Counted from the first letter of the stretch, positions 5,155 to 63,049 are shown. The stretch is 64,000 nucleotides of DNA from Verrucomicrobiota bacterium (GCA_022710725.1 JAKLGK010000001.1:113010-177009); one strand, 5' to 3'. Translations and numbers: made by a program. Notes: generated by a model from the sequence alone, not told the origin.

Positions 5155-5213
5155 GGTTCTGCTATTTCCTTTGGACGCCGGGCGCAGGAGCCGCGTACGA
5201 ATCCGTTTCCAGA

Positions 5214-33811: not shown

Positions 33812-34200
33812 GTCGCCGGGCTCCCGCCCGCGCCGCCCGCGCCCAGTTCGCCGGCATTCTCCATCTTGTGCAGGATATGCAGGACGCGATCGCCCTTCTC
33901 GATGGATTCGTCCAGCTCGAAGGAAAGCCGCGGCGTGTATTTCAGGATGACGTGGCGGTGCAGGATCTCCTGGATCTCGCCCCGGTGCCGGTACAGCCGC
34001 TTGAGCATGTCGCCCCGCTCCGCCCGGTGGTCCCGGATGGACACGCGCACGACCGCCGTCCTCAAGTCGCTGCCGACCTCGACCCCCGTGACCGTCACGG
34101 CCGTCAGGTCGAACCCCGACTCGTTCATCACCCGGAAAAGCGCGTCCGCGATCTCGCGCTTGAGGAGTTCGTTCACCCTGACCATGCGCTGATGACTCAT
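33808..34200 (-). CDS. rbfA: ribosome-binding factor A
   Basis: 'RMVRVNELLKREIADAL' matches RbfA. Start is ATG at 34200. The long upstream part of the 545-aa ORF overlaps infB out of frame and is rejected. Confidence 0.85.
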   Translation of the reverse strand: MSHQRMVRVNELLKREIADALFRVMNESGFDLTAVTVTGVEVGSDLRTAVVRVSIRDHRAERGDMLKRLYRHRGEIQEILHRHVILKYTPRLSFELDESIEKGDRVLHILHKMENAGELGAGGAGGSPAT

Positions 34201-34247
34201 GACCGACTCCGGGATGCAGGCGCCGCGGCAGAAACGACGGCCTCGGT

Positions 34248-36314
34248 TTAAAGCGGCTGCTCGATCTTCTGAACTTCGTAACACTCGATGACGTCGCCCG
34301 GCTTGAAATCGGTGAAACGGTCGAGCCGGATACCGCACTCCAGGCCCTCGCGGACCTCGGAGGCGTCGTCCTGGAAGCGCTTCAGGGAGACCACCGCGCC
34401 CTCGTAGAGCACGTCGTCCGCCCGCTTCACGCGGGCGCGCGCGTGGCTCGTTATGCGGCCGTCCGTCACCATGCAGCCGGCCACGTTGCCCTTCTTGCCG
34501 ATCTCGAAGACCTGTCGGATTTCCGCGTGCCCGATCACGGTCTCCTTGATCACCGGCTCCAGCAGGCCCACCATCGCGTCGCGGACCTCGTCCAGCAACT
34601 GGTAAATCACGCTGTAGAGGCGGATCTCCACGCCCTCGCGCTTGGCCAGGGCGGCGACGCCGTCCTCCTTGCTGACGTGGAACCCGACGACGATCGCGTT
34701 GGACGCGCTGGCCAGCAGCACGTCGTTGCCGGTGATGTTGCCGACGCCCGCCAGGGCGATCCGCAGCAAGACCTTGTCGCTCTTGATTCCCGACAGCGCC
34801 TGCCGGATGGCCTCGAGCGACCCCTGCACGTCCGCCTTGAGCACGATGGCCAGCTCCGTGCGCTGCTGTGTCTCGGCCGGCTTGAGCAGGTCGTCGAGGG
34901 ACGCCCGGCGCGGCGCGGAAATCGCCTGGAGCCGGCTGGCCGCCTCCCGCTCTTCCGCGATCGCGCGCGCCTCGCGGTCGTTGGGATATACCACGAACTC
35001 CATGCCGGGCTCGGGCACGCCGTTCAGGCCCAGGCACTTCACGGGGATGGAAGGCCCGGCCGTGCGCACCTTGATGCCCTGGTCGTTGATCAGCGCCTTG
35101 ACCCGCCCCCAGCAGCGGCCGCACACGATGGCGTCGCCCACCGAGAGGGTCCCCTGCTTCACCAGCAGGTTGGCCGTCGGCCCGCTGCCCGCCTCGAGGC
35201 GCGCCTCGATCACGAAGCCCTGCGCCGGCCGCCGCGCATTGCCCTTGAGCTCCAGCATCTCGGACTGCAGCAGGATCATCTCCAGCAGGTGGTCGATGCC
35301 GTCGCCGGTGACCGCGCTGACCGGGCAGCAGATGGTCTGGCCACCCCAGTCCTCGGGGGCCAGGCCCTCGTGCTGGAGCTGCCTCTTCACGCGGTCCACG
35401 ACCGCGCTCTTCAAGTCTATCTTGTTGATGGCGACCATGATGCACACGTTGGCCGCCCGGGCGTGCTGGATGGCTTCCTTCGTCTGCGGCATCACGCCGT
35501 CGTCCGCGGCGACGATCAGCACGGCGATATCCGTCAGGTTCGCGCCGCGGGCGCGCATGGCCGTGAAGGCCGCGTGGCCCGGCGTATCCAGGAACGTGAT
35601 CGGGTGGTCGCGGTAGGTCACCGTGTACGCGCCGATGTGCTGGGTGATGCCGCCGTCCTCGGACTGCACGACCTTGCTGTGGCGGATGCGGTCCAGCAGG
35701 GACGTCTTCCCATGGTCCACGTGGCCGAGGAACGTGACGACCGGCGGGCGCGGCTGGATGTCCTCGGGGCGCGGCTCCTCGACCTTCGGCTCGACCTTCT
35801 TGACCGGCTTCGGCTCGGGGGCCTTCTTCTCGTGCTCGATCGAGGCCCCGTGGCGGGAGGCCAGCTGCTGGGCCACCTTGAACTCGATGCGCTCGTTGAT
35901 CGAGGCAAACACGTTCATCGTCATGAGCTCGGCGATCAGCAGGTTGGGCTTCAGGCCCAGCTGCTCGGCGAACTCCTTCACGATGATCGGCCCCTTGACG
36001 ATGATCACCTTGGGCGCGGGCGGCGGGGGAGGCGGAGGCGGGGCGGCCGGCGCAGGGGGCGGAGGCGCCGCGGGCTTGGCCGGCGCGGGGGCGGCCTTCG
36101 CCGGCGGCGCGGCCTTGGGCGCCGGTTTTGCGGCGCCGGTTTCCGCGGGCGCCGCGGCGGCGGCCGGAGCGCCGACGGCCTTGCGCACCAGGGCCACCTG
36201 CTCGGGCGACAGGGCGGCGAAATTGTTCCGGACCTCCACGCTCATCGCGTGGAGCCGGTCCATCAGCTCCTTGCTGGTCAGCCCCAGTTCCTTGGCCAGT
36301 TCATGAACTCTCAT
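34248..36314 (-). CDS. infB: translation initiation factor IF-2
   Basis: N-terminal 'MRVHELAKELGL', an Ala/Pro-rich linker, a GTPase domain ('GHVDHGKTSLLD', 'DTPGH', 'NKID') and a C-terminal domain. Start is at 36314. Confidence 0.9.
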   Translation of the reverse strand: MRVHELAKELGLTSKELMDRLHAMSVEVRNNFAALSPEQVALVRKAVGAPAAAAAPAETGAAKPAPKAAPPAKAAPAPAKPAAPPPPAPAAPPPPPPPPAPKVIIVKGPIIVKEFAEQLGLKPNLLIAELMTMNVFASINERIEFKVAQQLASRHGASIEHEKKAPEPKPVKKVEPKVEEPRPEDIQPRPPVVTFLGHVDHGKTSLLDRIRHSKVVQSEDGGITQHIGAYTVTYRDHPITFLDTPGHAAFTAMRARGANLTDIAVLIVAADDGVMPQTKEAIQHARAANVCIMVAINKIDLKSAVVDRVKRQLQHEGLAPEDWGGQTICCPVSAVTGDGIDHLLEMILLQSEMLELKGNARRPAQGFVIEARLEAGSGPTANLLVKQGTLSVGDAIVCGRCWGRVKALINDQGIKVRTAGPSIPVKCLGLNGVPEPGMEFVVYPNDREARAIAEEREAASRLQAISAPRRASLDDLLKPAETQQRTELAIVLKADVQGSLEAIRQALSGIKSDKVLLRIALAGVGNITGNDVLLASASNAIVVGFHVSKEDGVAALAKREGVEIRLYSVIYQLLDEVRDAMVGLLEPVIKETVIGHAEIRQVFEIGKKGNVAGCMVTDGRITSHARARVKRADDVLYEGAVVSLKRFQDDASEVREGLECGIRLDRFTDFKPGDVIECYEVQKIEQPL

Positions 36315-37578
36315 GAGATTCCTCTTGTCCGTGCAGGTGTTCGCAGGCCTTCTCGACGCCCTGCAGCACCTCGCGGGCCGCCGCGGCATCAATGCCTTCC
36401 ACCGCTTCCAGGTCCGCGGGCTCGGCCGCCAGCAGGCCTTCCAGCGTCAGGAATCCCGCATGCACCAGTTTCTCCGCCCGCTCGGGGCCGATGCCGTCCA
36501 CGACGGCCAGCGCGGCCACGGCGCGCGCCACCTTCTCCTCGAAGCTGACGTCGCTCTCGTCCCGCAGGATGTCGATCTTCCAGCCCGTCAGCTTGGACGT
36601 CAGGCGGGCGTTCTGGCCCTTCTTCCCGATCGCCTGCGACAGGTGCTCCGCATCCACCACCACCTGGACCGATTGCGCTTCCGTGTCCACCGTGACGCGG
36701 ATCAGCTTGGCCGGCGCCAGCGCGTTCGTCACGAACGTCTTGATGTCATCGTGCCAGCGCACGATGTCGATCTTCTCGCCGGATAACTCCCGGACGATAT
36801 TTTTCACGCGGATGCCGCGCATGCCCACGCAGGCCCCCACCGGGTCGACCTTGGGATCGTGCGAAACCACGGCGATCTTGCTGCGGAACCCCGCCTCGCG
36901 GGCGATGCCCTTGATCTCGACGGTCTTGTCCGCGATCTCGGAAACCTCGAGCTCGAACAGCCGCCGCACGAAATCCGGGTGGCTCCGGGTCAGGATGATC
37001 TCCGGGCCCTGCGTCCGGCTTTCCACCTTGAGGATGAGGGCGCGCAACCGGTCGCCGATCTGGTACCGCTCCGTGGGCACCTTCTCCGCGACCGGCATCA
37101 GGCCCTCGGCGCGCCCCAGGTCCAAGATCACGTCGCTGCGCTCGATCCGGCTGACCGTGCCGCTGACGATGTCCCCCGCCCGGTCCTTGTACTCGCCGAA
37201 GACGCGCTCCTTTTCAGCCTGCCGGATTTTATGGAGGATGGCCTGCTTGGCGGTCTGGGCCGCGATCCGGCCGAAATTCTTCGGTGTGACCTCGATCTCC
37301 ACGGTATCGCCCAGCTGGGCGTCCGCCTTGATCCGCCGGGCGCTGGGGAGGGTGATCTCGTCATGCGGGGCGTTGACCTTCTCCGCGACGGTCACCTTGG
37401 CCAAAGCCCGGATCCGGCAGGTTTTGCGGTCGATCTCAATGCGCAGGTCCTTGGACGGACCCACGCTCTTCTTCGAGGCGCTCAACAGGGCGGCTTCCAC
37501 GGCCGTAAGAAGGGTCTCGCGATCGATGCCCCTCTCCCGCTCCATGTAATCTATGACAGCCAACAGGTCGTTGTTCAT
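36301..37578 (-). CDS. nusA: transcription termination/antitermination factor NusA
   Basis: Has S1 and KH domains ('VGACVGMRGIRVKNIV', 'AIGKKGQNARL'). Start is ATG at 37578 (MNNDLLAV). It overlaps the infB start by 14 nt. Confidence 0.9.
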   Translation of the reverse strand: MNNDLLAVIDYMERERGIDRETLLTAVEAALLSASKKSVGPSKDLRIEIDRKTCRIRALAKVTVAEKVNAPHDEITLPSARRIKADAQLGDTVEIEVTPKNFGRIAAQTAKQAILHKIRQAEKERVFGEYKDRAGDIVSGTVSRIERSDVILDLGRAEGLMPVAEKVPTERYQIGDRLRALILKVESRTQGPEIILTRSHPDFVRRLFELEVSEIADKTVEIKGIAREAGFRSKIAVVSHDPKVDPVGACVGMRGIRVKNIVRELSGEKIDIVRWHDDIKTFVTNALAPAKLIRVTVDTEAQSVQVVVDAEHLSQAIGKKGQNARLTSKLTGWKIDILRDESDVSFEEKVARAVAALAVVDGIGPERAEKLVHAGFLTLEGLLAAEPADLEAVEGIDAAAAREVLQGVEKACEHLHGQEESHESS

Positions 37579-37633
37579 GACCACCACCCCGCTTTGGGGG
37601 CCGCTTACGCAACCCACTACCACCAAGCGCGAT

Positions 37634-37663
37634 ACACAAAAGAGTGGGTGCGGACCCACTCTT
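37634..37663 (-). terminator. rho-independent terminator downstream of mazG
   Basis: On the minus strand: AAGAGTGGGT-CCGC-ACCCACTCTT followed by TTTGTGT. It is 117 nt past the mazG stop and upstream of nusA. Confidence 0.6.
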
Positions 37664-37779
37664 CAGCGTCACCGGCATGGTGTACTGGCAAACAATACTT
37701 TCTACTACAGAGACCTGGGGCGGTCAAGGTTTGTTTTGCGCGGCCGCAACCGCCGGGGCGACCAGCCTTTCCCCGGCCT

Positions 37780-38574
37780 CTACTCGGCGGCCTTGATTTC
37801 GTTCCAGATGGCGTCGAGCTCGGCCAGCTTGCACTCCGTCATCTTCCGGCCCTGGGCGTGCAGCCGCTCCTCGATGCCCTGGAATCGGCGGGTGAATTTC
37901 CGGACGGTATCCTCGAGCGCCTCCTCGGCGCTGTGGCCGAGGAACCGGCTCAAATTGACGGCGGCGAACAGCAGGTCGCCGATTTCCTCTTTGACCTTCT
38001 TCGGGTCGCCGCCGGCCATCGCCTCCCGGACCTCGCCTACTTCCTCCTCCACCTTGGCCATCACCTGGTGGACCGTGTCCCAGTCGAACCCGACGCGCGC
38101 GGCCCGCTTCTGGATCTGCTGGGCCTTATGCAGGGCGGGCGCGCTCCGCGGCACGCCGTCGACGGCGGACTTGCGGGGCGGCCCCTTCTCGCCCTTCTTG
38201 ATGGCCTCCCAGTTCCGGATCACCTCGGCCGAGTCGCTGACCTGGACCTCGCCGAAGACATGCGGGTGGCGGCGGACCAGCTTGTCGGAGATCGCCGTGG
38301 CCACGTCGTCGAAGGTGAAGCTCCCCTCCTCGCTGGCCACCTGCGCCTGGAACACCACCTGGAGCAGGACATCCCCGAGTTCGTCGCAGAGCCGGGCGCG
38401 GTCGCCGCTTTCGAGGGCGTCCATGGCCTCGTAGCACTCCTCGAGCAGGAAAGGCTTGAGCGTCTGGAGCGTCTGTTCGCGGTCCCATGGACAGCCGTTC
38501 TCCGCGCGAAGCATGCGCATCACTTCGCGCAGCCGGTCGATCGGCTTTCCGCCCGGATCTTTGGCCTGAACCAT
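37780..38574 (-). CDS. mazG: nucleoside triphosphate pyrophosphohydrolase MazG
   Basis: Tandem MazG repeats ('EECYEAMDAL...ELGDVLLQVV', 'EEVGEV...EIGDLLFAAVNL'). Confidence 0.85.
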   Translation of the reverse strand: MVQAKDPGGKPIDRLREVMRMLRAENGCPWDREQTLQTLKPFLLEECYEAMDALESGDRARLCDELGDVLLQVVFQAQVASEEGSFTFDDVATAISDKLVRRHPHVFGEVQVSDSAEVIRNWEAIKKGEKGPPRKSAVDGVPRSAPALHKAQQIQKRAARVGFDWDTVHQVMAKVEEEVGEVREAMAGGDPKKVKEEIGDLLFAAVNLSRFLGHSAEEALEDTVRKFTRRFQGIEERLHAQGRKMTECKLAELDAIWNEIKAAE

Positions 38575-38600
38575 AATATAAATGGCGGGAAAGGGTTACA

Positions 38601-39314
38601 TCATATCTGGCGGAACAGGGAGCCGATGATTTCGGAGGGCGAGGCGTCGCCGGGCGTCTCGATCACCAGGGCGGTTCCGCCGAAGTCCTCGAAGACGGTG
38701 AGTTCGTCGGGCAGCGCGACGCAACTCATGCCGGCCATGACCGCGCCGCGGGCGACCCGCCCGCTGGCGGCCAGCGCGCCGCAACCGCGGGGCCGCCGCT
38801 GGATCGAGCGCGCGGCCTTGACCCACGTATCCGGCGTCGGGAAATCGGCCGCGGCATCCTTGACAAGGAACAGCGTGACGCCCATCTCCTCCAGGCCCAG
38901 CCGCCCGGCGATCGCGCGGGCTGCATCTTCCGGCAGGCTCGTCAGGGCCAGGGCGGGGATGCGGCGCTGGGCGGCGGCCTTCAGGACGCTGGCCAGGGCG
39001 GGATTCAGCCCGGCCTTGTCGGCCGCCAGCTTGTCCAGGACGCGCTGCTGGACCGCTTTTTGCGATTCCGCGTCGCCGCCCAAAATCGCGGGCAGGCTGG
39101 CCGCCGGCGAACCCGTCAGGCCGTGGCGCATGAACAACCGGTCGTCAAACTTCTCCTTGCTCTCCTGGGCGTGGCGGCGAAGCGCGTCGGAGAGGACCTG
39201 CCGGCCGTTTACAGCCAGGTCTTCGAGGACGAAGAGCAGCGCATAGGGAACAACGGCTTCATTCTTGTCCCCGTCATTTTCGGCGACCGGCTTGGCTTCC
39301 GTCTTTGCGACCAT
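38601..39314 (-). CDS. HAD-fold (beta-phosphoglucomutase-like) protein with degenerate catalytic motifs
   Basis: The C-terminal 'PTPDTW...RRPRGCGALAASGRVARGAVMAGMSCVALPDE' aligns to HAD subfamily IA motifs III/IV. Motif I reads 'FVLEDLAV' instead of DxDG, and motif IV ED/DS is replaced by AAS. Confidence 0.5.
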   Translation of the reverse strand: MVAKTEAKPVAENDGDKNEAVVPYALLFVLEDLAVNGRQVLSDALRRHAQESKEKFDDRLFMRHGLTGSPAASLPAILGGDAESQKAVQQRVLDKLAADKAGLNPALASVLKAAAQRRIPALALTSLPEDAARAIAGRLGLEEMGVTLFLVKDAAADFPTPDTWVKAARSIQRRPRGCGALAASGRVARGAVMAGMSCVALPDELTVFEDFGGTALVIETPGDASPSEIIGSLFRQI

Positions 39315-39411
39315 GGCGGCGTTGCTCCTTCTATCTGGGGGTTCTCCCCGCGACTACCGGCCGGTCAGGCCACGAGGGCTTCCGGCCGGGAACATGAAAA
39401 GCGCGGACAGT

Positions 39412-39882
39412 CTAGGGGCTCGAGGGCCCGCGGTCAAGCGTCGACTCCGGCGGCGGGGCGCCGGGCGGGGGGCCGGACAAGCCCTCCAGCGCGCGCTGGT
39501 AGCATTCGGGGCAGACGCCGTGCGTGAACTCGGCCAGCGTGCGGGTCTCGATGAAGTCCTCCATGCGCCGCCAGGCCTGCTCGTCCACCTGCACGCGCCG
39601 GCAGTAGGAGCAGATCTTGATGAGGCCCTTGAGCGCCCGCTTCTGCTGCACGTAGGCGTGGCCGATCGAGACGAAGCCGACCACGATCACGGCGGCCGTC
39701 AGCACGCAGGCGCGGTACCAGTTGAACCGGCCTTCGGGCAGCCGGAAAAGCAGGTTCGGCAGGTCCAGCACCGCGTCCGCCCAGATCAGGCTGACCAGCA
39801 GGAGAAAGGCCATGAACTGCCAGAAGGCGATATACGCGAGCGGCCCGCCTGGGCGCTGCCGCTTGACCTTCCGCCCGGGCAT
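39412..39882 (-). CDS. small membrane protein with C-terminal CxxC...CxxC zinc-ribbon
   Basis: Two hydrophobic helices are followed by 'CSYCRR...CPECYQ'. It lies 4 nt downstream of the esterase gene. Confidence 0.5.
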   Translation of the reverse strand: MPGRKVKRQRPGGPLAYIAFWQFMAFLLLVSLIWADAVLDLPNLLFRLPEGRFNWYRACVLTAAVIVVGFVSIGHAYVQQKRALKGLIKICSYCRRVQVDEQAWRRMEDFIETRTLAEFTHGVCPECYQRALEGLSGPPPGAPPPESTLDRGPSSP

Positions 39883-39885
39883 ACC

Positions 39886-41010
39886 CTACCCCTTTCCGTA
39901 CAGGAAGCGGAGCCAGGCGCCGGTATGGCGGGCCCAGGACTCCTCGTGGTGCCGCCCCTCGAGGTCCTCCACCACGGCCAACCGCGCGCCCGGCTCCACG
40001 CCCCGCGTTTTCAGCAAGGCCAACATCTCGGACATCCCCTCGGCCAGTTCCCGCTCGAGCGGATCGCCCAGCCCGCAGTAAAGGAACAGGCGGATGCCGG
40101 GGACCGCCGCCGCGTTCCGCACCAGGTCCGGGCAGAAACGGTCGCCTTGGAAACGGAAGGCCGGGGAGAGGCAGGCCGCGGCGGAGAACACGTCGGGCCG
40201 GCTCCACGCGAGGAAGAAGGAGATGGTTCCGCCCAGCGACGCGCCGGCCACGGCCGTGGAGGCCGCCCCCGGCAGCGTCCGGTACTCCCGGTCCACCCAC
40301 GGCTTGAGCTCCTCGACCAGGAACCGCGCGTAGGACGCGCCGGCCAGCGATGGATGATACTCCGGCTCCCGGTCGGCGGTGGAATAGACGGCCACGGCGA
40401 TGATCTCCTCCATTTCGCCGGCGGCCATCAGCCGCGCGCACCACTCGTCCACTTCCCAGTCCTGGTTCCCGGACGAAGTCTGCGGGTCGAACACCTGCTG
40501 GCCGTCCTGGAGATAGCACACCGGGTAGCGCCGGTCGGGCTGCTGGGCATAGGACGGCGGCAGCCAGACGATGACGGTGCGGTCGAAGCGGAGGAACGCG
40601 GAACGGAATCCCTCGTGAACCCGGTAGCTCCCCGTGATCTTCGGCGTCCGGGCCCGGGCGGCGTCCCGCCAGCGCAGGACCGTGCGCCGCACCACGGCCT
40701 CCCCGCCCGGTTCCAGCCTGTGGTTCTCCGGGATCTTCCCGTCGTCCCCGACCTCCTCGGTATCCCACGAGCCCCGGGTGATCTTGAATTCCAGGGGCTC
40801 CCGGGAAGAACAGGCGGCCGCGCCGACCCACAGGTCATCCGAGGCCCTCGTCAGGGGCAGGCCGTCCGGCCGCCACGAACCGACGACCTCCTGGCTGCCG
40901 GCGACGAACACCTGCTCGCCGGCCGGGAGCGGCGCGCGGGTGCTGATCTCGAATCGTACGAGCCTGGGTTTCGACATGGCCAGCGCCTCCGGATTTTCGC
41001 CCGGGCCCAT
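39886..41010 (-). CDS. secreted alpha/beta-hydrolase esterase (PF00756-type) with N-terminal Ig-like/carbohydrate-binding domain
   Basis: N-terminal beta-sandwich 'VRFEISTRAPLPAGEQVFVAGS...EFKITRGSWDTEEV' (CBM20/E-set-like). The esterase core has the nucleophile motif 'AGASLGG' and 'PWVDREYRT'. An alternative start is the Met at 40977. Confidence 0.75.
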   Translation of the reverse strand: MGPGENPEALAMSKPRLVRFEISTRAPLPAGEQVFVAGSQEVVGSWRPDGLPLTRASDDLWVGAAACSSREPLEFKITRGSWDTEEVGDDGKIPENHRLEPGGEAVVRRTVLRWRDAARARTPKITGSYRVHEGFRSAFLRFDRTVIVWLPPSYAQQPDRRYPVCYLQDGQQVFDPQTSSGNQDWEVDEWCARLMAAGEMEEIIAVAVYSTADREPEYHPSLAGASYARFLVEELKPWVDREYRTLPGAASTAVAGASLGGTISFFLAWSRPDVFSAAACLSPAFRFQGDRFCPDLVRNAAAVPGIRLFLYCGLGDPLERELAEGMSEMLALLKTRGVEPGARLAVVEDLEGRHHEESWARHTGAWLRFLYGKG

Positions 41011-41049
41011 TATGGACCAACGCCGCCGGCATGGCTAGCCCGCAGACGG

Positions 41050-41085
41050 CAAAAAAGAAGAGGCGGGCCGCCGCCGGCCCGCCTC
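41050..41085 (-). terminator. rho-independent terminator of the giant gene
   Basis: On the minus strand: GAGGCGGGCC-GGCGGC-GGCCCGCCTC followed by TTCTTTTTTG. It begins 25 nt after the stop at 41110 and separates the giant gene from the esterase gene. Confidence 0.7.
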
Positions 41086-41109
41086 GCGAACGCCACCCGG
41101 GGCCGCCCG

Positions 41110-44100
41110 CTACGGATTCATCAGGCGAGTGGGCAAGCTGTACGGCGGCACGTTGGTCCACGTCCACGGCGTGGTGGACCCGCGCGTCCAGATCAGGAAC
41201 CCGTCGTCCGGCGAGATGGTGAAGCCGGCCGCCGACGAGTTGTTGACGTATTCCCACCGCGAGCGCGTGGTGTTGTAATACACGTCAAAGCCGACGCCCT
41301 GTTGCTGCCGGTTGAGCTTGCGGATTCGGTCCGCGGACATCGAGCCTACGCCGCCCTTGAAACCGGAGGCCAGCAGGTTCATTTGAGCCGGGCTCATCGT
41401 GCAGGGCAGGCGCATGTTCACGAGGTTATACGCTCCGTTCGGCTGGATGACCTGCGTCTGGTTGTTCGTCGGCACCCGGCCGATGAACATGAGGAGATAG
41501 GTCTGCGTCTCGTTGGTCGGGATGTTGATGGCCACGCTCTCGTCGAACGGGAACGCATAGTGGTCGGCCACTTGGTTCATGCCGCCCCAGCCCTGGCCCG
41601 TGCGCCACTCGTTGGAGGAGCCCCAGTCCAGGAGGTAGACATCCTTCTGCACCGTCTCGTTGGTCAGGCGGCTGTACCAGGTCACGATCGTGCTGTGCGG
41701 ATCGGTGTACGCCGAGCCGCCCGGCAGGTAATGGCCCAGCACGTTCTTCAGCGTGTTGGAGTCCGGGACCACCGGCAGGCCGACCCAGTTCTGGCCGGGA
41801 TACAGCGTGACGGTCCGCAGGCCGTACACCTCCTCGCTGGCCACGCGCGGCGAGCGGTTGGTCATCCAGCGGTCCTTGGAGGCGGCGCGGTAGAAGCGCA
41901 TGTTGGAGGTCAGCAGCGTCGGCGCCGTGCGATTCAGACCGCCCGTGTCGGACAGCGAGTTGGTGAACCCGCTCTGCAGGAACTGCCACTGGTTGGACAT
42001 CCCGTCGTTGAAGCTGCTGCCGTCCACCCACAGCAGGTCGTACTCGCGGTTCACCCCGCCGGACTGGTTCGTCGCGGCCACCCAGAAGATCTCCGAGTAG
42101 CGGATGTCCCCGCTGGTGGCCTTGACCAGGCCCTGCGTGACGTTGAAGCCCGGGAGCACGATCACCACCTCGTCCGACAGCGGCCCCTCGTTGCCCGCCC
42201 GGTCGCGGCCGACGATGCGGAACTTGTAGTCGGAGCCGAAGATCAGGTTCGACAGGGTGACCGTCGAGACCGACATGTTCGTCAGGGCCGCCTGCCCCGT
42301 GTACCCGTCGAAGTAGGCGCTGCTCGTGGTCACGGTGGACCCGTCTTCGCTGAAGTAGATCCGGTACGAGTTCCACGGCGACAGCGTCGCGCCGTCCGGC
42401 CGGTTGCCGGCGTTGGCCGCGGCGGTCCAGTTCAACTCGACCTCCGTGGTCGGGTCCTCGCCCTCGTCCACCGTGATCCCCATGATCTGCGGCGGGGCGT
42501 GCTGGTCCAGCCGCGTGACGAAGTTGGTCGTCTCGCTCATCTGGCCGTCGAAGGCGCGGTCGTGGTCGGCGTCCACGGCGAAGAGCCGGTTGGTGATCTC
42601 GCCTTCGGCCACGCCGGTGATGATCCGGCTCACGGGCATCTCCGTGCCGTTGGTCAGCGAAGCGGGCGCGTTCGTGTCGTACCGGTAGTGCAGGATCCCG
42701 GACGCGTCGCTGGAATCGGTGAACGACAGCGTGAACGAGTTGGCGTTCGTCCAGTCGGTCGGGCTGACGCTCAACGCCGTGGGCGCGGTCGGCGCGTTGG
42801 TGTCGTCGTCGTACACCACCAGCCAGCCGGCGTTGAGGTTGGTGCGGGCCTGGTCGCCCGGCCGGTCGTTGTCCGAATCCAGCGCGTGCAGCACGATGGC
42901 GTTGCTGTGGCCGGCGGCATCCCAGAACTGGCCCACCTGGTTGGAGGTGAACGTGGTGAACGCCCAGTAGCTGGTCGCGTTCTGGGCGGCGATGCGGGTC
43001 TCGCCGATGGACGAACTCCAGCCCGAGCTGTAATTCGCGGTGTTGCTGGACACCACGGAGCCGATGCTGATGTGCGTGTTCGTCAGGGTGCGCCCGTCCG
43101 AAGTGGTCGTCGCGGTCGTATCGCGCTGCAGGCCCAGGACGTTGTCGTCGCCGAGGTCGTAGCTGTGGAAGCCGAGCATCAGCTGGCTCGATCCGGACAC
43201 CCCGGCCAGTTCGCCGTCGGACACGGCATACACCTGGTTGGACGCGTCTTCCGGGTGCGTGGAATAGGTCCACAGGTTGGACGTCGGGGCGCCGGGGCTC
43301 GGCCCGAGGAGCACGGTCAGCGCGTTCGTGTTCGCGGTCTGATTCGTCGGGAACTGCAGGATCGCCGGCGACGGGTCGTTGTCCTTCCAGGCGATGTACC
43401 CGACCTGGTAGGCCGTCAGCACCGAGGCGTCGTCCGGGCGGTCCTTGTCCGTGTCGGAGACGCTCACCGTGACCTTGCTCGTCGTGCCCACGAAGCTCAT
43501 GTCCCCGAACGAGGTGAAGACCCAGACGTTGGTCGCCGCGGGGTTGTTCGTCGTGCTGGCGCTGCTCGAGGCCAGGGAGAGGTAGGAGACATCGTTCGTG
43601 ATGAAGCCCTCGATGGTCAGGGTCAGGTTCGACAGGGCCTCCGTCCCGCTGCGGTGGTAGCCGCTCTCGTCGTACAGGTTGATGTGCAGGTACGGGGTGT
43701 TCGTGCTGCCCACGTTCTGCATCATGCGGTCGTTCAGGCTCCAGCGCCGGTTCGTCGAGACGCCCGCTGCCGAGGCGTTGGTCGTGCCCTGGTACAGCAC
43801 CATGGGCCCGTGCAGGTTCGGGTAATCGAACGGCTTGTCTTTCGTCATGCTCTGGAAGATCGTCCCGCCCACCGGCGGATTGGTGTCGTCGTCGATGACC
43901 GTCACGGCGATCTGCTGCGTGTACTGAAGGTTGTCGTCCGGCCGGTCGTTGTCGGCGTCCGCCGCGTACACGCTGGCGGTGTGCACGCCCAGCACGATGT
44001 TCGCGAACGCCACCGACAGGTTCGTCGCGTAGAGGTTCGCCCACTCGCCGATGGTCTGGCTGGCGTTGGTCGGGCCGATGTTGAACGGCTGCTGGTTGAA

Positions 44101-47100
44101 CAGCGAGGCGCCGGCCGGGGTCACCAGGTCGAACCGCGTCCCGTACGTCGGGTGGCGGTTGCTGTAGACGCCGCTGGTCGCGTCCGTGACGCGCGCGGTG
44201 ATCGACAGCGTGCCCTGGTTCAGGTCCTGGTCGCTGACCAGGCCGGAGCCCGGCAGCGGGGCCAGGCTGCCCTGCAGCCGCAGGTTGTCCACGCGCCACG
44301 ATCCGGTCGAGCCCGTCGCGTTCGTCGCGTGCAGGCGGAAGGTGACGGCGCCCTCCAGCGACGACAGGCTCAACGCCGTGCTGTTCGTCTTCCAGTTCGT
44401 GTCGGCGTGGTTGCCGCTGGCCAGGGCGGTCGCGTAGCTGTCGCCGCTGTACAGGAAGTACCAGTCGGTGGGGCCGGTGCTGGAGCGGTTGTCCATGAAC
44501 GTCAGGTTCGTCACCGTCAGCGCGTAGCCGGACTCCACCGTCAGCGTGAAGTCGAGGTACTGGTACGCCTGGTAGAACTTGCTGGTGACCGCGCAATAGC
44601 CCGGATTGCCCGTGCCCTGGTTGATGGCGTCCACGCCCCCGCCGAGGACCGCGCCGGCGGTGACATGGGCGACGACCGTGTCCGCGTTGGTCGTGAACGT
44701 GTACGTCGTTTCATCGACGGGGATGTCGAAGTCGTACAGCACCATCGTGCCGTTCTCGGTCAGCCCGGCGCCCGTACCGAGGGCCGTCAGGTTCGTGAAC
44801 AGCGGCGCGTCGGCGTCGTCGTCGGTGACGGCCACCGGCATGGCCAGCGAGCCGTCCTGGTTGTCGTTGAGCCGGTCGAAGTCGAAGTCCGTGACGTAGA
44901 CCACCGCGCTGTACGTGCCGATGTTGATGTAGTTCCACATGCCCGTGGATGCCGTCCGCGTCAGGGCCTGGGTCGTCACGGGCACCCCGTTCGGGAAACC
45001 CACCGACATCGCGTTGGACAGCGCCATGTCGCCGTCCGCGTTATACAGCAGGAAGTGCGGCGCGCTCGCGTAGGCGTTGTTCGTGGCCAGCAGGCCGGAG
45101 GTGTAGTCGGACACCACGTCCACCACCGTGTACTGGCCCGTGGACACCTGCGCGTCCGTCAGGTTCGGCGTCTGCCACTCCATGCCGCCCTGGCTGGTGA
45201 CGCTGAACGCGAAGTTACTGAAATTCAGATCCGTTGCGCTAGCCGCCACCTGCCAGTTGTTGGAGTCGCTGATTGAGGCGAGCAACTCGGAGGACGAGCC
45301 GGTCAGCCTCCCCGTGTAGATAATATTGACCGACTCGGCACCGCCCACGCTGACGGCGGTCACGCCGTTCGTCAAACCACGGTACAGGGCCGAGCACAAG
45401 TTGTTGGTCGGAACGATCGGCAGGTACCACCCGTCCGCCTGTGGCGCGGTGTTCGTGCCGAGCATGTTGACGGCGTACAGGAACGTGACGCGGTCCGGAT
45501 CGTTGGAGGCGTTGACCGAGCCGTTGTACTGGTACACGGTGACCTGGTCGCCGCCCGAGTTGATGTCCTGCAAGCCCAGTTCGAACACCTGCCCGACGTC
45601 CGCGTCGCCCGTCGCGATCCACAGGTTCGTGTGGAACTCGGTCACGCGGTGCCAGTTGGTCCCCGCGTTGTCCGCCCAGCCGCAGTCGGTGAAGTGGACG
45701 ATCGTCCCCGCCGGGAACGGGGCCAGGACCACGAAGGCGAACTTCTCGATCTTGGCGCTGGGCGAGCCGTTGACGCCGACGACGGCGATGTTGCCGGGCA
45801 GCAGGTTGGTGCTGCCGTACCCGCCGACGCCGTCGATGGTGAACTGGGTATGGCTCGGGGCGACCGAGTCGTCGTCCGTGACCTGGAGGTAGCCGAAGAC
45901 GACGTTGGAGGCCACGCTCGCGTCGTCGGTCCGGTCGTGGTCGGTGTCGCGCAGCGTCAGCATCACCGGGTTGGTTTCGCCGGCGGAGCCCGACCCGTCG
46001 CCGGCCCAGAGGGCCGTCATGTCGCTGAAGGCCAGCGAGTCCCAGTGCCAGGCCAGGACCGTGTTGGTCTCGGTCGTGTCGCCCACCGTGCTGCGGCTGG
46101 CGCTGTAGTTGGCGATGTTGTTGGTCTGCCAGCTCGAGGAACCGACGGAGAGCGAGGTGTTCGTGTCCGCGGAGCCCGCGGCGCTCAACTGCAGGCCGCT
46201 GTAGTAGTCGTAGGCGTTGAACAGCAGCGTCAGCGGCGTGCCGGTCATGCCGCCGTCCGTGCCCGTGTAGATCACGGACTGGCCGGAGCCCGAGGCGGTC
46301 AGCAGGGCCGTGGCGTTGGACGCCAGGAGCGTACGGCTGCTCGCCCACTGCGCGCCGTAGGCGAACGTCGGCACGTCGTCGTCGTCGTCCGTGACGTTGA
46401 TCCGGATCAGCTCGTTCGTGCTGACGTTGCGCGCCGTGTTGGGCCCGTCCTCGCAGTAGCCGCCGTAGGTGGCGGCCGGCGCCCCGTAGCTGTTCCACGA
46501 GCCATACGCCGCCCAGCTCCCGTTCTCGGTGCACCCGTCCTCCGAGCTGACGGTCAGGTAGTACTCGATCGTCTCGTCATAGCCGCTGATGGTGAAGGCG
46601 TTGTGCACCCAGGCCGTGATGCTCGGCGAGGAGTTCCCCGCCGACGAGGCGATGTTGCTGCCGTAAAACACCGCGTCGTAACCCAGTTCGTTGGAGGAGC
46701 CGTCCGAATAGAGGCGGAACACGTCCCAGTTCGGCGACACGCGGCCGTCGTCGGAGACGATGTTCCACGTGAAGTTACTGGGCGCAGGCCCGCTGTTGTT
46801 CTGCCTGTTCGTCGCGTACACGCCGCTCGGGTCCTCGATCTTGATGGCGAACCCGATCGCGTTGACCGCCTGCTGGATCTCGGCGTCGGTGATGGACTGG
46901 ATCGGCCCGTACTTGTCGATGTGCGCGTCGAAATCCCCGGCTAGATAGCCCGTCAGGTTGGTGCCGATGTACAGCAGGGTGTGCAACGGCCCCGTGATGT
47001 CGCCCTTGCCGCCGATGCGGAACATCTGGATCTGGCCGCTGGAGAGCGCGCCGGCCGTGTCGCGCGCCCGGACGCGCCACCAGTACTGCGTCGCCGACGT

Positions 47101-50100
47101 GGAGAGGGTGTAGTTCGTCTGGGTCGCCGGCAGGTTCACGCGGAGGAAGATCGAGCCGTTCTCCGTCGTGCCGCTCTCGCCGTTCAACGTTTCGTTCGTC
47201 CCGACCTCCAGGAAGTAGCCGGTGACCTGGCCGTCGCTGTCGGTCGAGGCGTTCCACCACAGCGTCGGGTTGGCGGTCGCGGCATAGTTGTTGGTCGGGA
47301 AGCCGACCGCCGGCGTGCTCGGGATCGAGTTGGCCACCACGCCGTTGGCGTCAAAGACGACGTCGAACCAGAAGTCGATGCTGTTGTCGCTGATGTCCTC
47401 CTGCCAAGCCGACTGCGAGAGGTCGCCGTCGTTGACCTGCTCCGGCGCGATGGAGGCCGCGTCGGCGGCGTCCGGCGTGCCCGCGAGGATCTGGACCGTG
47501 CCGTCGCCCGAGTTGTTCCACAGGTCGTTGTTCAGGAAGCTGGCGACCGTGAACCGGGCCGTGACGGGGCTGCTGACCAGCAGGTCGGAGCGGTTGATCC
47601 AGAACTCCATGGCGTTGTTCGCCGCGCTGGCCGCCGCCGCCGAGCCGGCCGGCGGGCCGTACCAGGTGCCGCCGTCGTCGGCGTACACTTCCACCTGCAT
47701 GGCGCCGTCGGCGCGGTGCACCGTGATGTTGCGCTGCGCGTAGTGCACGGCGGCCTGGCCACCGGCGAAGTAATTGCCGCCGTAGAAGGTCCCGGAGTCG
47801 TCGCCGATCCAGTTCATCGCGCCGCTCGCCGAGGACCGCCGCGTGTCCAGGCCGATGTTGATGTACGGGTGCTGGTCGGACGTGACGTCCCCGTACTTCA
47901 CCAGGAAGTAGACGTTGGTCGTGTCCGCGTAGATGCGGACCTCGCGGATGTCCGCGTTGGTCGTGTTGGCCACGTCCTTGCGCTCCTCGCCGCACTTGTC
48001 CTTCCAGATGAACTCGTTACGCGACACGGTCGACGCGTTGTAGGTGGAGCCCGCCGTGCCCTGCCAGTCCGCCGGGTTGCCGTCCACCACGATGGCCTGG
48101 CTGCCGCCCAGGGTCGAGGCGCTGTCCACCGTGCCGGTCGAGTAGTAGCTGTAGTTCTCGGAGTAGAACCGGTAGTAGTACGTCTGGGAGGACGCCAGGC
48201 CGGTGTCGTCGAAGCTGGACGCGTTGCCGCGGTAGACCACCGTGTCCGAGCCGAGCGTTTCGCCCGCGTAGTAGGCCGTGCCCGGCGTCGGCGCGGTGAA
48301 GCTGCCCGACGTGTTCCGGACGATCATCACGTCGTGGCCCACCGTGTTCTTGGTCCACGCCAGGTTGATCTGGCTGTTGGTGTTGACCGAGTCGCGCGTG
48401 GCCGAGACGGGATTCGGGTTGACCAGGGCATTGACCGTCAAGCTGCCGGACGGATTGGTGCTGATGACGCTGCAGCTCCCGCCGTAGGCGAGGTACACGA
48501 AGTCGTGCACGCCGGTCTTGGTCATCTGCGCGCTGTAGCTCCACCAGCTGTTGTTATTGTGGTTCGACGACCAGGCCATCGAGTAGGTCGAGGTGGTCTG
48601 GTCGGTCCAGCGGATCTGCAGGTCCGCGCTCTGGCCGGAGCCGATCGGGTAGGTCTGGCACTCGAACGTCAGCGAATTGCCGAGGTTCGTCACCGCCACC
48701 GGCACGTTGTTGCTGCCGATCCACGTGGGGCAGGTGACGCCGACCAGCTGCGACCAGTTCGTCGCCAGCCGGATCTCGTCGAAGTACACGTCGCCGATGC
48801 TCCCGCAGTCCGGGTTCAAGGCGCCGACGTTCAGCCGGATGCGGTCCACGGAATCGATGCCCGTGCCCAGCGTCCGGGTAACGTCCCAGCTCGTCGGCTC
48901 GCTGCTCGGGAACTCCGTCGCCGTCGGCAGGTTGTACGCGTTGGCCTGCAGATTCTTCGTGCTGAAGTCGTACTTGCCCAGCACGAGGTAGACGCTGCCC
49001 GTGTGCGCCTCGGCGCCGCCGCCGTACGGCCGCAGATCGTAGCCGGACCACGCGGTTCCGCCGTCGCCCGCCACCCCCAGGGTGTACCAGTTGGCGCCGC
49101 TGGCCTTGCCGAAGAACGCCTTCTCGGTCGCGCCGTTGTAGAAGCTCAACCCGGCCCACTTGTTCGAGCCGTAGTACTGGTAGGCCATCATGAAGGCGAC
49201 GTAGATCTGGCCGGAGTTGATCGCCGCGCCCAGGCTGCGCTCGGCGTAGCCGCTCGAGCCGTTGCCGAGGCCGGTGATCCGCATCAGGTTGCCCGCCATG
49301 TCCGTGTAGCCCTCGATGTTCACGAAGCGCGGGATCGCCGCGGCCTCGGCCGTAGGCGAGTTGGTCCGGATGCCCCAGCTGCCGCTGACCGCCCAGTAGT
49401 TGTCCCCGAAGCCCTTGCCGCCTTTCGTCGCGGTGCCCGGGGCCGTCGCGTTGGTATACGAGAACGGGTTGACGATCTCGTAGCTCTGGTAGCTCCCCAT
49501 CGTCACGTTCGCCGTCAGGCCCGTGGAGTAGTAGTTGACGGCGTTGTACGAGTAGAATTGGTAATACGCGCTCGACCCGTCCGCCACGACGTGCTCCAGC
49601 GTGTCCCCCGTGCCCTTGTAGATGACCGTCGCGCCGTCGATCGTGTCGTTCAGGCTGTAGGTCGTGCCGTCCGTCGGGTCGGTCGAGATGGCGCTGGTCT
49701 TGTACAGGATCATGACGCCGTTGCCGGCGCCGTTCTTCTCCCAGCCCAGCCGCACCATCTCGTTGCCGTCCGCCGTCGCCGACGCGCTCACCGGGTCTTC
49801 CGGTTTCGACGGGACCACGGCCAGCAGCTCGGACCAGTTCGTCGCTACGCGGACCTCGTCGAAGTACACCACGCCCGGCGTGCCGTACCCCTCCGACGCC
49901 CCGGCCCGCAGGCTGATGCCGTCGATCTGCGTGACGCCGCCGACGTTTAGGTACTCCGCGTCCCACGAGCCCGGCTCGCTGTCCGGCACGGAGTCGGCCC
50001 CGATCTTGTACGCCGACGCGTGGGCGTCGTCCGTCGAGAAGTCGTACCGCATGATAATGACGTAGTCGTTGCCGGAGCCGTAATCCAGCTTCTTGGTGCT

Positions 50101-53100
50101 GACGGCGTTATGGACGCCCAGCGTCGCGCTCGCGCCCCAGCACTCGCCGAAGAAAATCTTCTCCGTCGCGCCGTGCATCAGGCTGGCGCCGGCCCACTTC
50201 TGCGCGCCGTCCCACGTGAAGTTCATGATGAAGGCCGCGTACACCTTGCCGCTCGTCCGCGCGGCGAACGAGCGCGATACGTACAGGCCCGCGTTATTCG
50301 AGGGCACCATCACGATCTTATTGCCCGTCGGCGTCGGGTAGTTCGTCTGGCCCGAGAAGCTGCCCGCGTGGTTCGTGACCCAGCCGGTGTTGCCCGACCA
50401 TGCCCCGCTCCAGTCGTTGCTGCCCGCGCAGTTCGCCAGCGTCGTGCCGTTGGTGTACGAGAACGTGTCCACGATCTCCTGCGCGGCGAACTGCTCCGTC
50501 GTCTCGGAATCCGTCAGGCCGGCGGAATAGTGGTTGTTGTTCACGGAGTAGAACGCGTAGTGGTGCTCCGTGCCGGACGCGACCATGTGCTCCAGGCTCG
50601 AGCCCGAGCCCTTGTAGATCACCGTGCCGCTGCCGCAGGAATCCCCAATGTTGTACGTCGTGCCTTGCGTCGGCGCCGTCGAGGCCGCGCCCGGCCGGTG
50701 GACGATCATCACGTCGTACGTGGCGTTCTTCGTCCACGCCAGGTCCATCAGGGTCTTGCCATCCGCCGTCGCGGTCGCCACCGACGGATCGGGGATGTTC
50801 GTCAGGACCAGGACGGCCTGCACGACCTGCGGGCTGTTCGTCGCCGCGTCGTTGCCCGCGCCGGTGTTGGTCACCGTGTTCGTGCCGTAGTAGGTCCCCG
50901 CGGACAGGCCCGTCGCCACAAAGAAGTTCGTGTGGACCTTGCTCGCGCCGTTCGCCAGGCTGCTGCCCGTCAGCGGCCGCACGGTCAGCCAGGCCGCGTT
51001 GGTCGAAAGCACGTACGACAGCGCCCCGCCGCCGATGTTCGTCACGGCGAAGGTGTGGCTCGTCGGCGTGGACCCTACCACGCCGTACACCGCCAGCGCC
51101 GCGCCCACGCCGATGCCCGGGTGGCTCTTCAGCGTCACCGTGCCCGTGGCGGAATTGACGCTCGTGCACAGGGTGTTCGTCCCGCGCACGCGGTAGTAGT
51201 ACACCCCGCCCTCCGTCAGCCCCGTCACCGCGTTGCTCGTCGCCGATACCGCCACGTTGGAGTAGCCGGTCGCATAGGCGATCGCGTTGGACGTGCCGCC
51301 GACGATCACGTCGTCGAAGGCCAGGTTGCCCGCGCTCTTGGTGTAGGTGAAGCGCAGCTTCGTGACCGATCCCGACAGCGGCATGTTCGTGTTCTCGCCC
51401 GTGGTCGGCAGCGGCATGATCGTGGACACCGTGCTCCAGCTGCCGGCATAACCCTCCACCAGCAGCGACGAACTCGCGTCCGTGCCGTTGCCCTTGACCC
51501 AGATCGTCACGCCCGTCGGGCTGCCGCCCAGCGTCGGGGTCTCCACCGCGTCGCCCGTGGCGTCCATCTGCAGCGACGGCGAGCCGCGGCCGTAATTGCC
51601 ATCGGAGGAATAGGTTCCGCCGATGGCGGTGAAGGTCCAGCCGCCGGGCGGGGTCGTCCCGCCGTCAAACGCCTCGTCGATCAGCAGGGCGGCCACCGTG
51701 CTGCCCTGGTAGACATCCAGCTGGTACCCGGTCGCGCCGGCCAGCGCGCTCCAGTTGGCCGTGAAGTCCGCGAAGTTCGTCGGGTTGGCGTAGAGGCCGA
51801 TCGGCCCGTTGGTGAAGCAGGACGCGACGTTCGTGACCACGTAGCCGTAGCCCGCCCCGATCGTGTTGGTCGCGTAGGCCCGGACGTAGTAGGTCTGGCC
51901 GGGCGTCAGGTTGGCCATCGTCGCCGAGAACTCGCCCAGACCCGAGCCGTTGGTCGTGCAGGGGTCGGCGATCGTCGGCGGGTTGGACGTGCTCCAGCAG
52001 ACGCCGCGCCGGGTGACCGTCGCGCCCTTCTCGTCCGTCACGTTGCCGCCGCTCACGGCGGAGCCCGGGATGTTGTTGCTGATCGCGAAGGTCGTCACGG
52101 CCGGCGTGTCCAGCGGGGCCTGGCTGCCCGTCCGCGGGTCGCTGGTCCGGTAGTTCTGGAGCCCGTCGTCGCCGTTGAACTCGTAGATCGCCACGTGGTA
52201 CGTCACGCCGGCGGTCAGGGCGGACATCACCACGCTGGTCCCGCTGCCGATGTACACGACGTAGTTGCCCGTGCCGAGCTGTGTGCCGCTGCCGAAGGCC
52301 GCGTTGTTCGTGTAGCCCATCCCGTCCGCCGGGTTCGAGTCCACCGCGCTCCCCTGCTTGACCACCACAATGGAGTTCGCGCCGTCCCCGCCGGACCAGC
52401 CGATCTGGAAGCTCGTCGCCGTGATGAGCGTGAAGGCCACCGCCGTCGGGTTCGCCGAAGGCTCCGCCGCGAAGGTCGTCGCGTTCGCCGTCGGGATCGT
52501 CGCCGCCGTCAGGTAGTTGTAGGTCTGCCATTGCCCGCCGTCGGCGTTGAACGGGACGATCGAGAAGTTGTACTGCGTGCTCGCCGTCAGGTTGCTGACC
52601 GTCGTGCCCGTCTCGGCCCCGCCGGTGACGATGTTCACCAGGGTCGCGTCGCCGAAGACCGTGGCGAGGGCGTAGTTCGTGCCGTCCGTCGGCGTGCCCG
52701 TCGGGTCGGCGCCCTGCCGCCGGAGGATCAGGTAGCCGTCCACCGGCGCGGACGCCGCCGTCCACGACAGGTTGATCGTCGAGGCCGAGGCCGCCGCGGC
52801 CGCGAAGCTGCCCGCGTGGCCCGCCGGCTCCGCGCTCAAGGTGTACGCCGTGATGACGTTCGAGTTCGAGCTCGCGCCGCTGGCGTTCTCCGCCCGCACC
52901 CGGTAGTAGTACGTCGCGCCCGCGGCCAGGTTGGTCACCAGCTCCGTCGTCGCGCTGACCGAGCGGTTCGAGTAGCCGGGGACGTAGGAATCGCCGGCGG
53001 AAATGCCCCGCAGCAGGACGTCGTCCACGCGCATGGCCGTGCCGCCCGTCTTGACCCAGCGCAGGCTCAAGTTGGCGCTGATCGCCTCCGCGGCCAGCCC

Positions 53101-63034: not shown

Positions 63035-63049
63035 GGAGGTTTCCTTTCC

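Follow-up and report, generated by a model that had tools for sequence, protein, structure and literature searches.

An uncatalogued immunoglobulin-like repeat in a giant Verrucomicrobiota protein carries acidic clusters that co-vary across domain junctions

What is repeated near the C-terminus of a giant protein from a Verrucomicrobiota bacterium, and what might its recurring clusters of aspartate be for? The protein is encoded within a 64,000-nucleotide stretch of DNA (GCA_022710725.1 JAKLGK010000001.1:113010-177009), the whole of which we refer to as the window, by a single minus-strand open reading frame (ORF) at positions 41110-59880 that specifies 6,256 amino acids and has a G+C content at third codon positions (GC3) of 0.96. 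A preliminary description of positions 42541-45963, which correspond to residues 4640-5780 of this ORF, proposed that six C-terminal modules share the signature D-x-D-x-D-R-x-D-D followed by (V/I)-x-D-D-D-x-x-(A/P)-P, and that they might constitute a new calcium-binding repeat. Here we find that the repeating unit is an immunoglobulin (Ig)-like domain of ~125 residues with acidic clusters at what are predicted to be its two poles, that the acidic linker following one copy is kept or lost together with the acidic loop of the next copy, and that the junctions so formed are probably stiffened by Ca2+.

The signature itself is not in doubt. A pattern scan found D-x-D-x-D-R exactly six times in the 6,256 residues, at residues 4645, 4998, 5308, 5476, 5668 and 5770 and nowhere else, against 0.03 occurrences expected from composition; among 5,000 shuffles the maximum count was 2 in the whole protein and 1 in the C-terminal region. 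Thus, the six motifs are real, and all of them were located by the preliminary description, although some were placed one residue too low. Its R-x-D-D was over-specified, since position +7 of the signature differs among the six copies (D, N, D, D, G and F) and it is the Asp at +8 that is invariant, which leaves DxDxDRxxD as the constant core of the first half. The second half, which had been assigned to every module, is canonical (DDD-x-x-[AP]-P) in four copies, at residues 4669, 5020, 5330 and 5691, but is degenerate in a fifth (residue 5499) and missing from the last; an additional linker of this kind is present at residue 4498 without a preceding DxDxDR. Successive loops are separated by 353, 310, 168, 192 and 102 residues, and so the fall in spacing from ~350 to ~100 residues that had been reported holds as an overall trend but is not monotonic (168 is followed by 192).

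Self-comparison of the C-terminal region by BLAST gave weak, composition-driven similarity between the modules and no simple repeat of 100-350 residues. Alignment of the ~110 residues upstream of each motif, however, revealed the shared elements T-D-x-x-L, V-x-D-x-x-S-G-[LIV] and L-G-x-x-T, and the repeating unit is a ~125-residue Ig-like domain, of which six clear copies and one degenerate copy lie within residues ~4330-5800. The copies in the window are diverged (~20-40% identical); they were called with a hidden Markov model (HMM) of the family, whose i-Evalue is given for each, and all coordinates that follow are on the minus strand. Copy 0 (residues 4329-4507; 46360..46896) is marginal and degenerate (0.032, with a full-length alignment), having the linker DDDDDVP at residues 4498-4504 (46369-46389) and CEDGPNTARN in place of the DxDxDR loop. 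Copy 1 (residues 4538-4679; 45844..46269; 1.8e-29) has the loop DTDHDRTDD at residue 4645 (45922-45948) and the linker DDDSVAP at residue 4669 (45856-45876), copy 2 (residues 4905-5030; 44791..45168; 3e-23) has DFDFDRLND at residue 4998 (44863-44889) and DDDADAP at residue 5020 (44803-44823), and copy 3 (residues 5213-5340; 43861..44244; 3e-32) has DADNDRPDD at residue 5308 (43933-43959) and DDDTNPP at residue 5330 (43873-43893). In copy 4 (residues 5380-5509; 43354..43743; 1.4e-20) the loop DTDKDRPDD at residue 5476 (43429-43455) is followed by the degenerate linker KDNDPSP at residue 5499 (43366-43386). Copy 5 (residues 5551-5701; 42778..43230; 7.3e-21), a long variant, has DSDNDRPGD at residue 5668 (42853-42879) and DDDTNAP at residue 5691 (42790-42810), and copy 6 (residues 5703-5799; 42484..42774; 4.3e-8), the last and shortest, has DADHDRAFD at residue 5770 (42547-42573) and LDQHAPP instead of a DDD linker.

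Two unrelated domains are inserted between copies, and it is because of these that the spacing of the motifs is uneven, with linkers of ~40 residues explaining the rest. Insert 1, between copies 1 and 2 (residues 4680-4904, ~225 residues; 45169..45843), has the conserved motifs L-x-aGD-x-A, F-T-D-x-G-W, G-D-Q-x-x-x-Y-Q and N-W, has no Pfam match, and occurs 50 times in 40 of the 152 family proteins that are introduced below. Insert 2, between copies 2 and 3 (residues 5031-5212, ~180 residues; 44245..44790), has the conserved residues T-G-P-x-x-W ... W-R-x-D-N-L, recurs in 17 of the 152 proteins, and resembles the N-terminal region of P0003, a protein of 739 residues that carries PF17963 Big_9, in a match that spans 8% of the query. 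What had been read as six homologous modules of 100-350 residues is therefore a ~125-residue Ig-like domain together with unrelated inserts and short linkers.

An AlphaFold2 model of residues 5208-5340, comprising copy 3 and made with a 60-sequence alignment, is a seven-strand sandwich with a predicted local distance difference test (pLDDT) score of 92.8 and a predicted template modeling (pTM) score of 0.83. In the model, strand A is followed by a short helix that starts at the Asp of T/S-D, strand B by the V-x-D-x-x-SG loop, and then come strands C, C'/D, E and F, the last of which has the first Asp of DxDxDR at its end; an F-G loop of 10 residues leads to strand G, directly after which stands the DDD. 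Judged from this strand order, the B-C and F-G loops would share the N-terminal pole of the domain and the ends of strands A and G its C-terminal pole. The modeled domain thus has two separate acidic clusters at opposite poles: in the N-pole cluster the Asp of V-x-D-x-x-S-G, which follows strand B, is joined by the F-G loop D-x-D-x-D-R-x-x-D, and in the C-pole cluster the Asp of T-D-x-x-L, which follows strand A, is joined by the linker D-D-D-x-x-x-P that comes after strand G. When copies 5 and 6 were modeled in tandem, copy 5 had the same strand order as the copy 3 model, with per-block pLDDT mostly above 90 (blocks 81-96), and copy 6 was of low confidence (mostly 50-70). (Two other roles for these domains were considered and rejected: for an isopeptide or ester cross-link domain the sole hint was an FctA match at E 0.22, with no conserved Lys or Gln partner, and acid-labile Asp-Pro cleavage does not fit a Pro that lies at least three residues after the DDD.)

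To place these copies in a wider family, we built a profile of 126 positions from 14 copies and searched 1.84 billion representative proteins with it; 403 proteins were returned at E <= 1e-3, 251 at 1e-10 and 112 at 1e-30. Many of these proteins are 3,000-8,000 residues long, and a single protein has up to 27 matched stretches. When the best 152 proteins were searched again locally, the first profile matched 1,056 times, 545 of these matches being full length, and a deeper profile 1,129 times. In 531 copies from proteins other than the window protein and its two closest relatives, the acidic positions are kept at high frequency: D5 in 85%, D21 in 92%, D94, D96 and D98 in 86, 85 and 84%, D102 (position 9 of the loop, invariant in the window copies) in 90%, and D116, D117 and D118 in 94, 89 and 98%. 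R99 is kept in 77%, G25 in 96%, G84 in 88% and P122 in 97%. The residue following the third Asp of the loop, tallied over 1,081 copies, is Arg in 792, Trp in 68, Ser in 30, Tyr in 29 and Gly in 21. Across the family, the spacing between copies has modes at ~100-200 and ~300-350 residues.

Co-variation among the acidic positions was computed over the 1,129 aligned copies. Within a copy, the N-pole residues D21, D94, D96, D98, R99 and D102 are kept or lost jointly (Fisher p 1e-23 to 1e-105), and the C-pole residues D5, D117, D118 and D119 likewise co-vary (p 1e-2 to 1e-18), whereas the two groups, which coincide with the two poles of the model, are almost unlinked to each other within the same copy (p between 1 and 1e-4). 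Moreover, an intact DDD in copy n is negatively associated with an intact loop in that same copy (odds ratio 0.13, p 3.9e-11), whereas it is strongly associated with an intact loop in copy n+1 when the gap between the two is at most 25 residues (odds ratio 25, p 1.5e-16), and the association is also present when an insert of more than 100 residues intervenes (odds ratio 6.8, p 7e-5). Controls pairing the DDD of copy n with the loop of copy n+2 or of copy n-1 gave odds ratios of 0.39 (p 0.015) and 1.07 (p 0.75). Every single pair of positions across the junction is coupled, and when one pair was sampled per protein the median odds ratio was 11.7 (median p 0.0025).

The ends of the arrays follow the same pattern. 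First copies have an intact loop in 42% of cases and an intact DDD in 98%, middle copies in 80% and 90%, and last copies in 93% and 29%, and the DDD is kept in 88% of copies even when more than 100 residues of other sequence precede the next copy. The window protein fits the rule exactly, in that the linkers at residues 4498, 4669, 5020, 5330, 5499 and 5691 each precede one of the six loops, with copy 0 at one end having a linker but no loop and copy 6 at the other end having a loop but no linker. Linker n is thus paired with loop n+1, and therefore the signature that had been noted as one unit straddles two junctions: DxDxDRxxD pairs with the DDD of the preceding copy and not with the DDD 22 residues downstream.

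The junction that we propose would consist of the C-pole cluster of copy n and the N-pole cluster of copy n+1, about nine Asp and one Arg together, and would chelate two or three Ca2+ ions that lock consecutive domains into a stiff rod, much as in the extracellular (EC) repeats of cadherins and the extender repeats of RTX adhesins. In cadherins and in the adhesins MpIBP, SiiE, MhLap and AhLap, acidic junctions are filled by cations and the chain is thereby stiffened (PMC7493085). Because cations fill such junctions in these characterized systems, we regard Ca2+-dependent rigidification as the most likely function of the junction, and hold to it with reasonable, though not strong, confidence; that a metal is bound, which ion and how many, and that the effect is to rigidify are what we infer from the analogy. 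Note that because the junction residues are retained even where another domain sits between two copies, such an insert may bulge sideways from a continuous stalk.

Several points weigh against this interpretation. The counts behind the co-variation lack phylogenetic independence, and copies without the motif are under-detected by the HMM. Inserts of 40-225 residues interrupt many of the junctions. Furthermore, the third Asp is followed by Arg in 73-77% of copies and by Gly in only ~2%, whereas all metal-binding Dx[DN]xDG loops in one survey have Gly at that position (PMC3123361). The F-G loop cannot, then, take the canonical Dx[DN]xDG conformation unchanged, and the Arg could neutralize the acids instead of a cation. 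This substitution of Arg for Gly is both our main ground for caution and the most distinctive feature of the family.

Three other explanations for the acidic clusters have to be set against a Ca2+-stiffened junction. That the pattern is a compositional artefact, produced by chance from Asp-rich low-complexity sequence in a high-GC gene, might be suggested by a DNA-level regular expression for the motif, which matched mostly unrelated high-GC genomes without the domain (116 of the 120 loci listed; see below), but this idea is already refuted by the six occurrences in the window protein against 0.03 expected, by the fixed structural position of the motif in a confidently modeled domain and by its retention in 403 representative proteins. 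It is unlikely, too, that the clusters are intra-domain sites, stabilizing the fold or binding cations independently at each pole rather than being shared at a junction. The tight co-variation of the N-pole cluster (D21 and the F-G loop) within one domain, the 1-3-5-9 ligand spacing that the loop has in common with self-contained loops of the Dx[DN]xDG type, and the 88% retention of the DDD before more than 100 residues of other sequence are all compatible with autonomous sites, but the loss of the loop from first copies and of the DDD from last copies is not what such sites would lead one to expect, nor is an odds ratio of 0.13 between a DDD and its own loop as against 25 with the next one. 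Finally, the junction might be independent of Ca2+, with Arg and the Asp clusters forming a zipper of salt bridges and hydrogen bonds, or with the acids binding Mg2+, lanthanides, mineral surfaces or cationic glycans. Arg stands in place of the Gly required by known Ca2+-binding DxDxDG loops and co-varies with D96 and D98 (p 1e-83 to 1e-92), and by sequence the family belongs to no characterized Ca2+-binding family; we nevertheless doubt this explanation, as a single Arg cannot offset the charge of the roughly nine Asp in each junction, and as such a density of charge at extracellular interfaces is, in the known cases (cadherins, MpIBP, SiiE and MhLap), always filled by cations (PMC7493085).

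A Ca2+-stiffened junction could also have a more familiar origin, were the modules diverged members of Cadherin, Calx-beta, TSP3, Big, Y_Y_Y or fn3 with the motif as the known site of that family. We consider this very unlikely. Consistent with the claim of the preliminary description that the motif matches no nameable family, searches of Pfam-A with the whole protein, with nothing but the six copies (E up to 10) and with 60 diverse copies found no family over the modules, NCBIfam matched the giant protein only at its N-terminal autotransporter-associated repeats, and profiles run against all PDB sequences returned nothing at E up to 10. A confident match to Cadherin-like, Calx-beta, thrombospondin type-3 (TSP3) or BIg families, which had been named as what would overturn that claim, was likewise absent from these searches. 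In favor of an existing family are compact relatives of the domain, which exceed the Y_Y_Y (PF07495) cut-off only when partial scores are added up, none of their stretches passing by itself, and one of which reaches 22.8 bits with Cadherin (PF00028) against a cut-off of 28.8; the latter family had no match in the window protein, in the six copies (E up to 10) or in the 60 diverse copies. Several protocadherins are among the weak matches in a Foldseek search, and hhalign places the F-G hairpin in register with that of cadherin. The hhalign probability was, however, just 6% (P 0.006), over the F-G hairpin only, for a profile of the copies (A3) against four EC domains, and 27.5% for the compact repeats; of the EC sequences used, E-cadherin EC1-2 and N-cadherin EC1 and EC2, that of E-cadherin agreed with 3q2v_A (E 6e-149).

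The resemblance to cadherin is one of architecture. Both are tandem seven-strand beta-sandwiches of ~110-125 residues, in proteins that are extracellular in the case of cadherins and probably so here, and of the five Ca2+-motif positions of cadherins four have acids here (where strands A, B, F and G end). The Ca2+ ligands of cadherins are E11 at the end of strand A, the DxD at strand B, the Asp of A-x-D at strand F and the post-G linker DxNDNxP; in the family described here D5 occupies the end of strand A, and the A-x-D Asp at the end of F is common to both. Engagement of the linker with the B-C and F-G loops of the next repeat, which has been shown for cadherins, is supported here by co-variation. 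Against the cadherin Ca2+-binding motif set of LDRE, DxD and DxNDNxP (PMC6691240), the present repeats have one Asp after strand B rather than DxD and a DDDxxxP rather than a DxNDNxP linker, so that the sites are topologically analogous but not the same, and nothing equivalent to LDRE was found: the E-F loop (profile positions 78-84) conserves no acid, D80 being kept in only 17%. The earlier suggestion that the clusters resemble the inter-domain Ca2+ sites of cadherin or TSP3 repeats survives in the logic of its cadherin half, with acids at two sandwich poles and co-variation across the junction, but not in its TSP3 half: a TSP3 repeat is a non-globular calcium wire of DxDxDGxxDxxD that is stabilized by Cys, whereas the domain is a beta-sandwich, has Arg where TSP3 has Gly and no conserved Cys, and gave no Pfam TSP_3 match in the window protein or the 60 copies. 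One could go further and imagine the family as a prokaryotic sister lineage of the EC repeat, present also in Asgard archaea (Lokiarchaeota), that shares the junctional Ca2+ architecture and has diverged beyond routine detection, but this strikes us as highly improbable.

Other families share isolated features with the repeat. The loops of EF-hand-like proteins, integrin FG-GAP, dockerin and TSP3 (Dx[DN]xDG) have Asp at positions 1, 3 and 5 and a later acidic ligand, as here; such loops allow Asp at 1, D, N, S or T at 3 and D or N at 5, and all six window copies have Asp at each of the three, and 2 of the 60 copies gave weak FG-GAP_3 matches through the F-G loop. Unlike those loops, the present one has Arg at position 6 and stands in an Ig-like F-G hairpin that is coupled to the linker of a neighboring domain. 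Y_Y_Y (PF07495), Big_7 (PF17957) and Big_3_5 have a similar strand E-F pattern, L-G-x-[YW]-T-x-x-V-x-A-x-D, but not the pair DxDxDRxxD and DDDxxxP; Y_Y_Y did not match the window protein and matched 2 of the 60 copies at E 0.09, and no single domain passes Y_Y_Y, Big_7 or Big_3_5. The extenders of RTX adhesins (MpIBP RII, MhLap 6XI3, AhLap 6XI1 and the BIg domains of SiiE) have different motifs and form near-identical arrays, whereas the present protein has only 6-7 repeats, which are diverged and have other domains interspersed among them. Moreover, Pfam detected neither Big_* nor HemolysinCabind (RTX) in the 6,256-residue protein, the leader of which resembles an N-terminal Sec signal and not a C-terminal type I secretion system signal, its C-terminus being a different conserved domain. 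The family is thus not a demonstrable member of Cadherin, of the DxDxDG/EF-hand-like loops, of TSP3, of RTX-BIg or of Y_Y_Y, each of which has at least one defining feature that it lacks.

A sequence search with the motif region itself found only three proteins, among which the relatives P0001 and P0002 keep the same motifs. A protein of 6,221 residues from a Kiritimatiellia metagenome-assembled genome (MAG; P0019) shares 69-79% identity with the window protein over long N-terminal blocks and has the same six-copy layout. The bacterium that encodes the window protein is itself Kiritimatiellia-like. Named relatives come from MAGs of Kiritimatiellia, Lentisphaerae and Verrucomicrobiota, from Fimbriiglobus (Planctomycetota), from Lokiarchaeota and from Gemmatimonadetes. 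Relatives carry the source annotation 'hypothetical protein' or 'autotransporter-associated beta strand repeat-containing protein'. In P0103 and P0066 (both from Lokiarchaeota MAGs), P0038 and P0076 the repeats are compact and in tandem, at ~98-120 residues each, with ~98-residue versions in Lokiarchaeota, and hhalign assigns these compact repeats to the same family, with a probability of 98.4% across the F-G hairpin. In the P0018 cluster, one of whose members is a Gemmatimonadetes protein bearing the name T9SS C-terminal target domain protein, the copies are of partial length and their motifs lie further apart, at irregular intervals; in some lineages Trp or Tyr replaces the Arg after the third Asp. 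(On the metagenome contig that encodes P0001, at L001 3340-15158, the giant gene appears to be split into adjacent or overlapping ORFs, namely PATR fragments, an LTD/Ig ORF of 1,134 residues and the 1,773-residue P0001, which points to frameshifts or misassembly within what would be one giant gene; its neighbors are sulfatases and a two-component system.)

The preliminary description had also suggested searching PVC genomes for the motif as a regular expression, to see whether it defines a family. A family does emerge with the profile (403 representative proteins at E <= 1e-3), but the bare DNA pattern is unspecific: in a scan of GTDB genomes, for which the expression was written with GAC codons only, 116 of the 120 loci listed, mostly in unrelated Actinomycetota and Myxococcota, were without the domain, and the other four were in three Verrucomicrobiota MAGs and one Fimbriiglobus.

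The giant protein as a whole combines, mosaic-like, four or more types of repeat. It starts with a signal-peptide-like N-terminal leader, from which we take the protein to be probably extracellular, and continues with PATR/autotransporter-associated beta-strand repeats (PF12951, TIGR02601) at residues ~790-1500, within window positions 53881-59880 on the minus strand, the best PATR stretch being at residues ~791-820. Several fn3 and PhoD_N-like Ig matches fall in the central parts, and Cys makes up 0.5% of the whole protein. Copy 6 is followed by a fibronectin type III domain (residues ~5797-5905; 42166..42492, minus strand; Pfam PF00041, E 2.9e-7, scoring 31 bits where the cut-off is 25), whose F-G motif, D-R-A-G-N-E, is a classic one, and then by a conserved C-terminal domain of ~350 residues (residues 5906-6256; 41113..42165, minus strand). 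This domain is common to 87 of the 152 family proteins, stands at the extreme C-terminus in 80 of its 88 matches, and ends in W-T-N-x-x-x-Y-x-x-P-T-[RK]-x-M-x-P-COOH, with R at the [RK] position in the window protein. It had no match in Pfam or NCBIfam, its homologs in a protein sequence search are all unannotated, and it may be a sorting or anchoring signal of giant surface proteins in the Planctomycetes-Verrucomicrobia-Chlamydiae (PVC) group.

A plus-strand ORF of 2,003 residues that overlaps the motif region (39265-45276) was rejected as an antisense shadow; it is not among the ORFs with GC3 >= 0.80, in contrast to the minus-strand gene (0.96), and shadows of this kind are typical of high-GC DNA. 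Downstream of the giant gene, at 32118-41010 on the minus strand, are an esterase with a CBM20 starch-binding domain, two ORFs without a Pfam match, MazG, nusA-infB and, after a stretch of ~440 bp, truB-ribF; on the upstream side, at 60354-63902, are TPR-repeat proteins. The genomic context is one of chromosomal housekeeping and not of a mobile element.

These findings describe an uncatalogued Ig-like domain with a precise junction rule; the kind of system is well known, and no current view is overturned. The domain is present in at least 403 protein clusters, with hosts that include PVC bacteria, Gemmatimonadetes and Lokiarchaeota, and the rule that pairs linker n with loop n+1 predicts where the segments of a stalk start and end and which residues to mutate. 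Were homology with the EC repeat to prove true, it would have implications for how cadherin-type adhesion originated before eukaryotes. If Ca2+ binding is confirmed, the family would represent another independent solution to the stiffening of giant surface proteins, and would provide a natural test of whether a DxDxD-R loop can take the place of the canonical DxDxD-G calcium loop.

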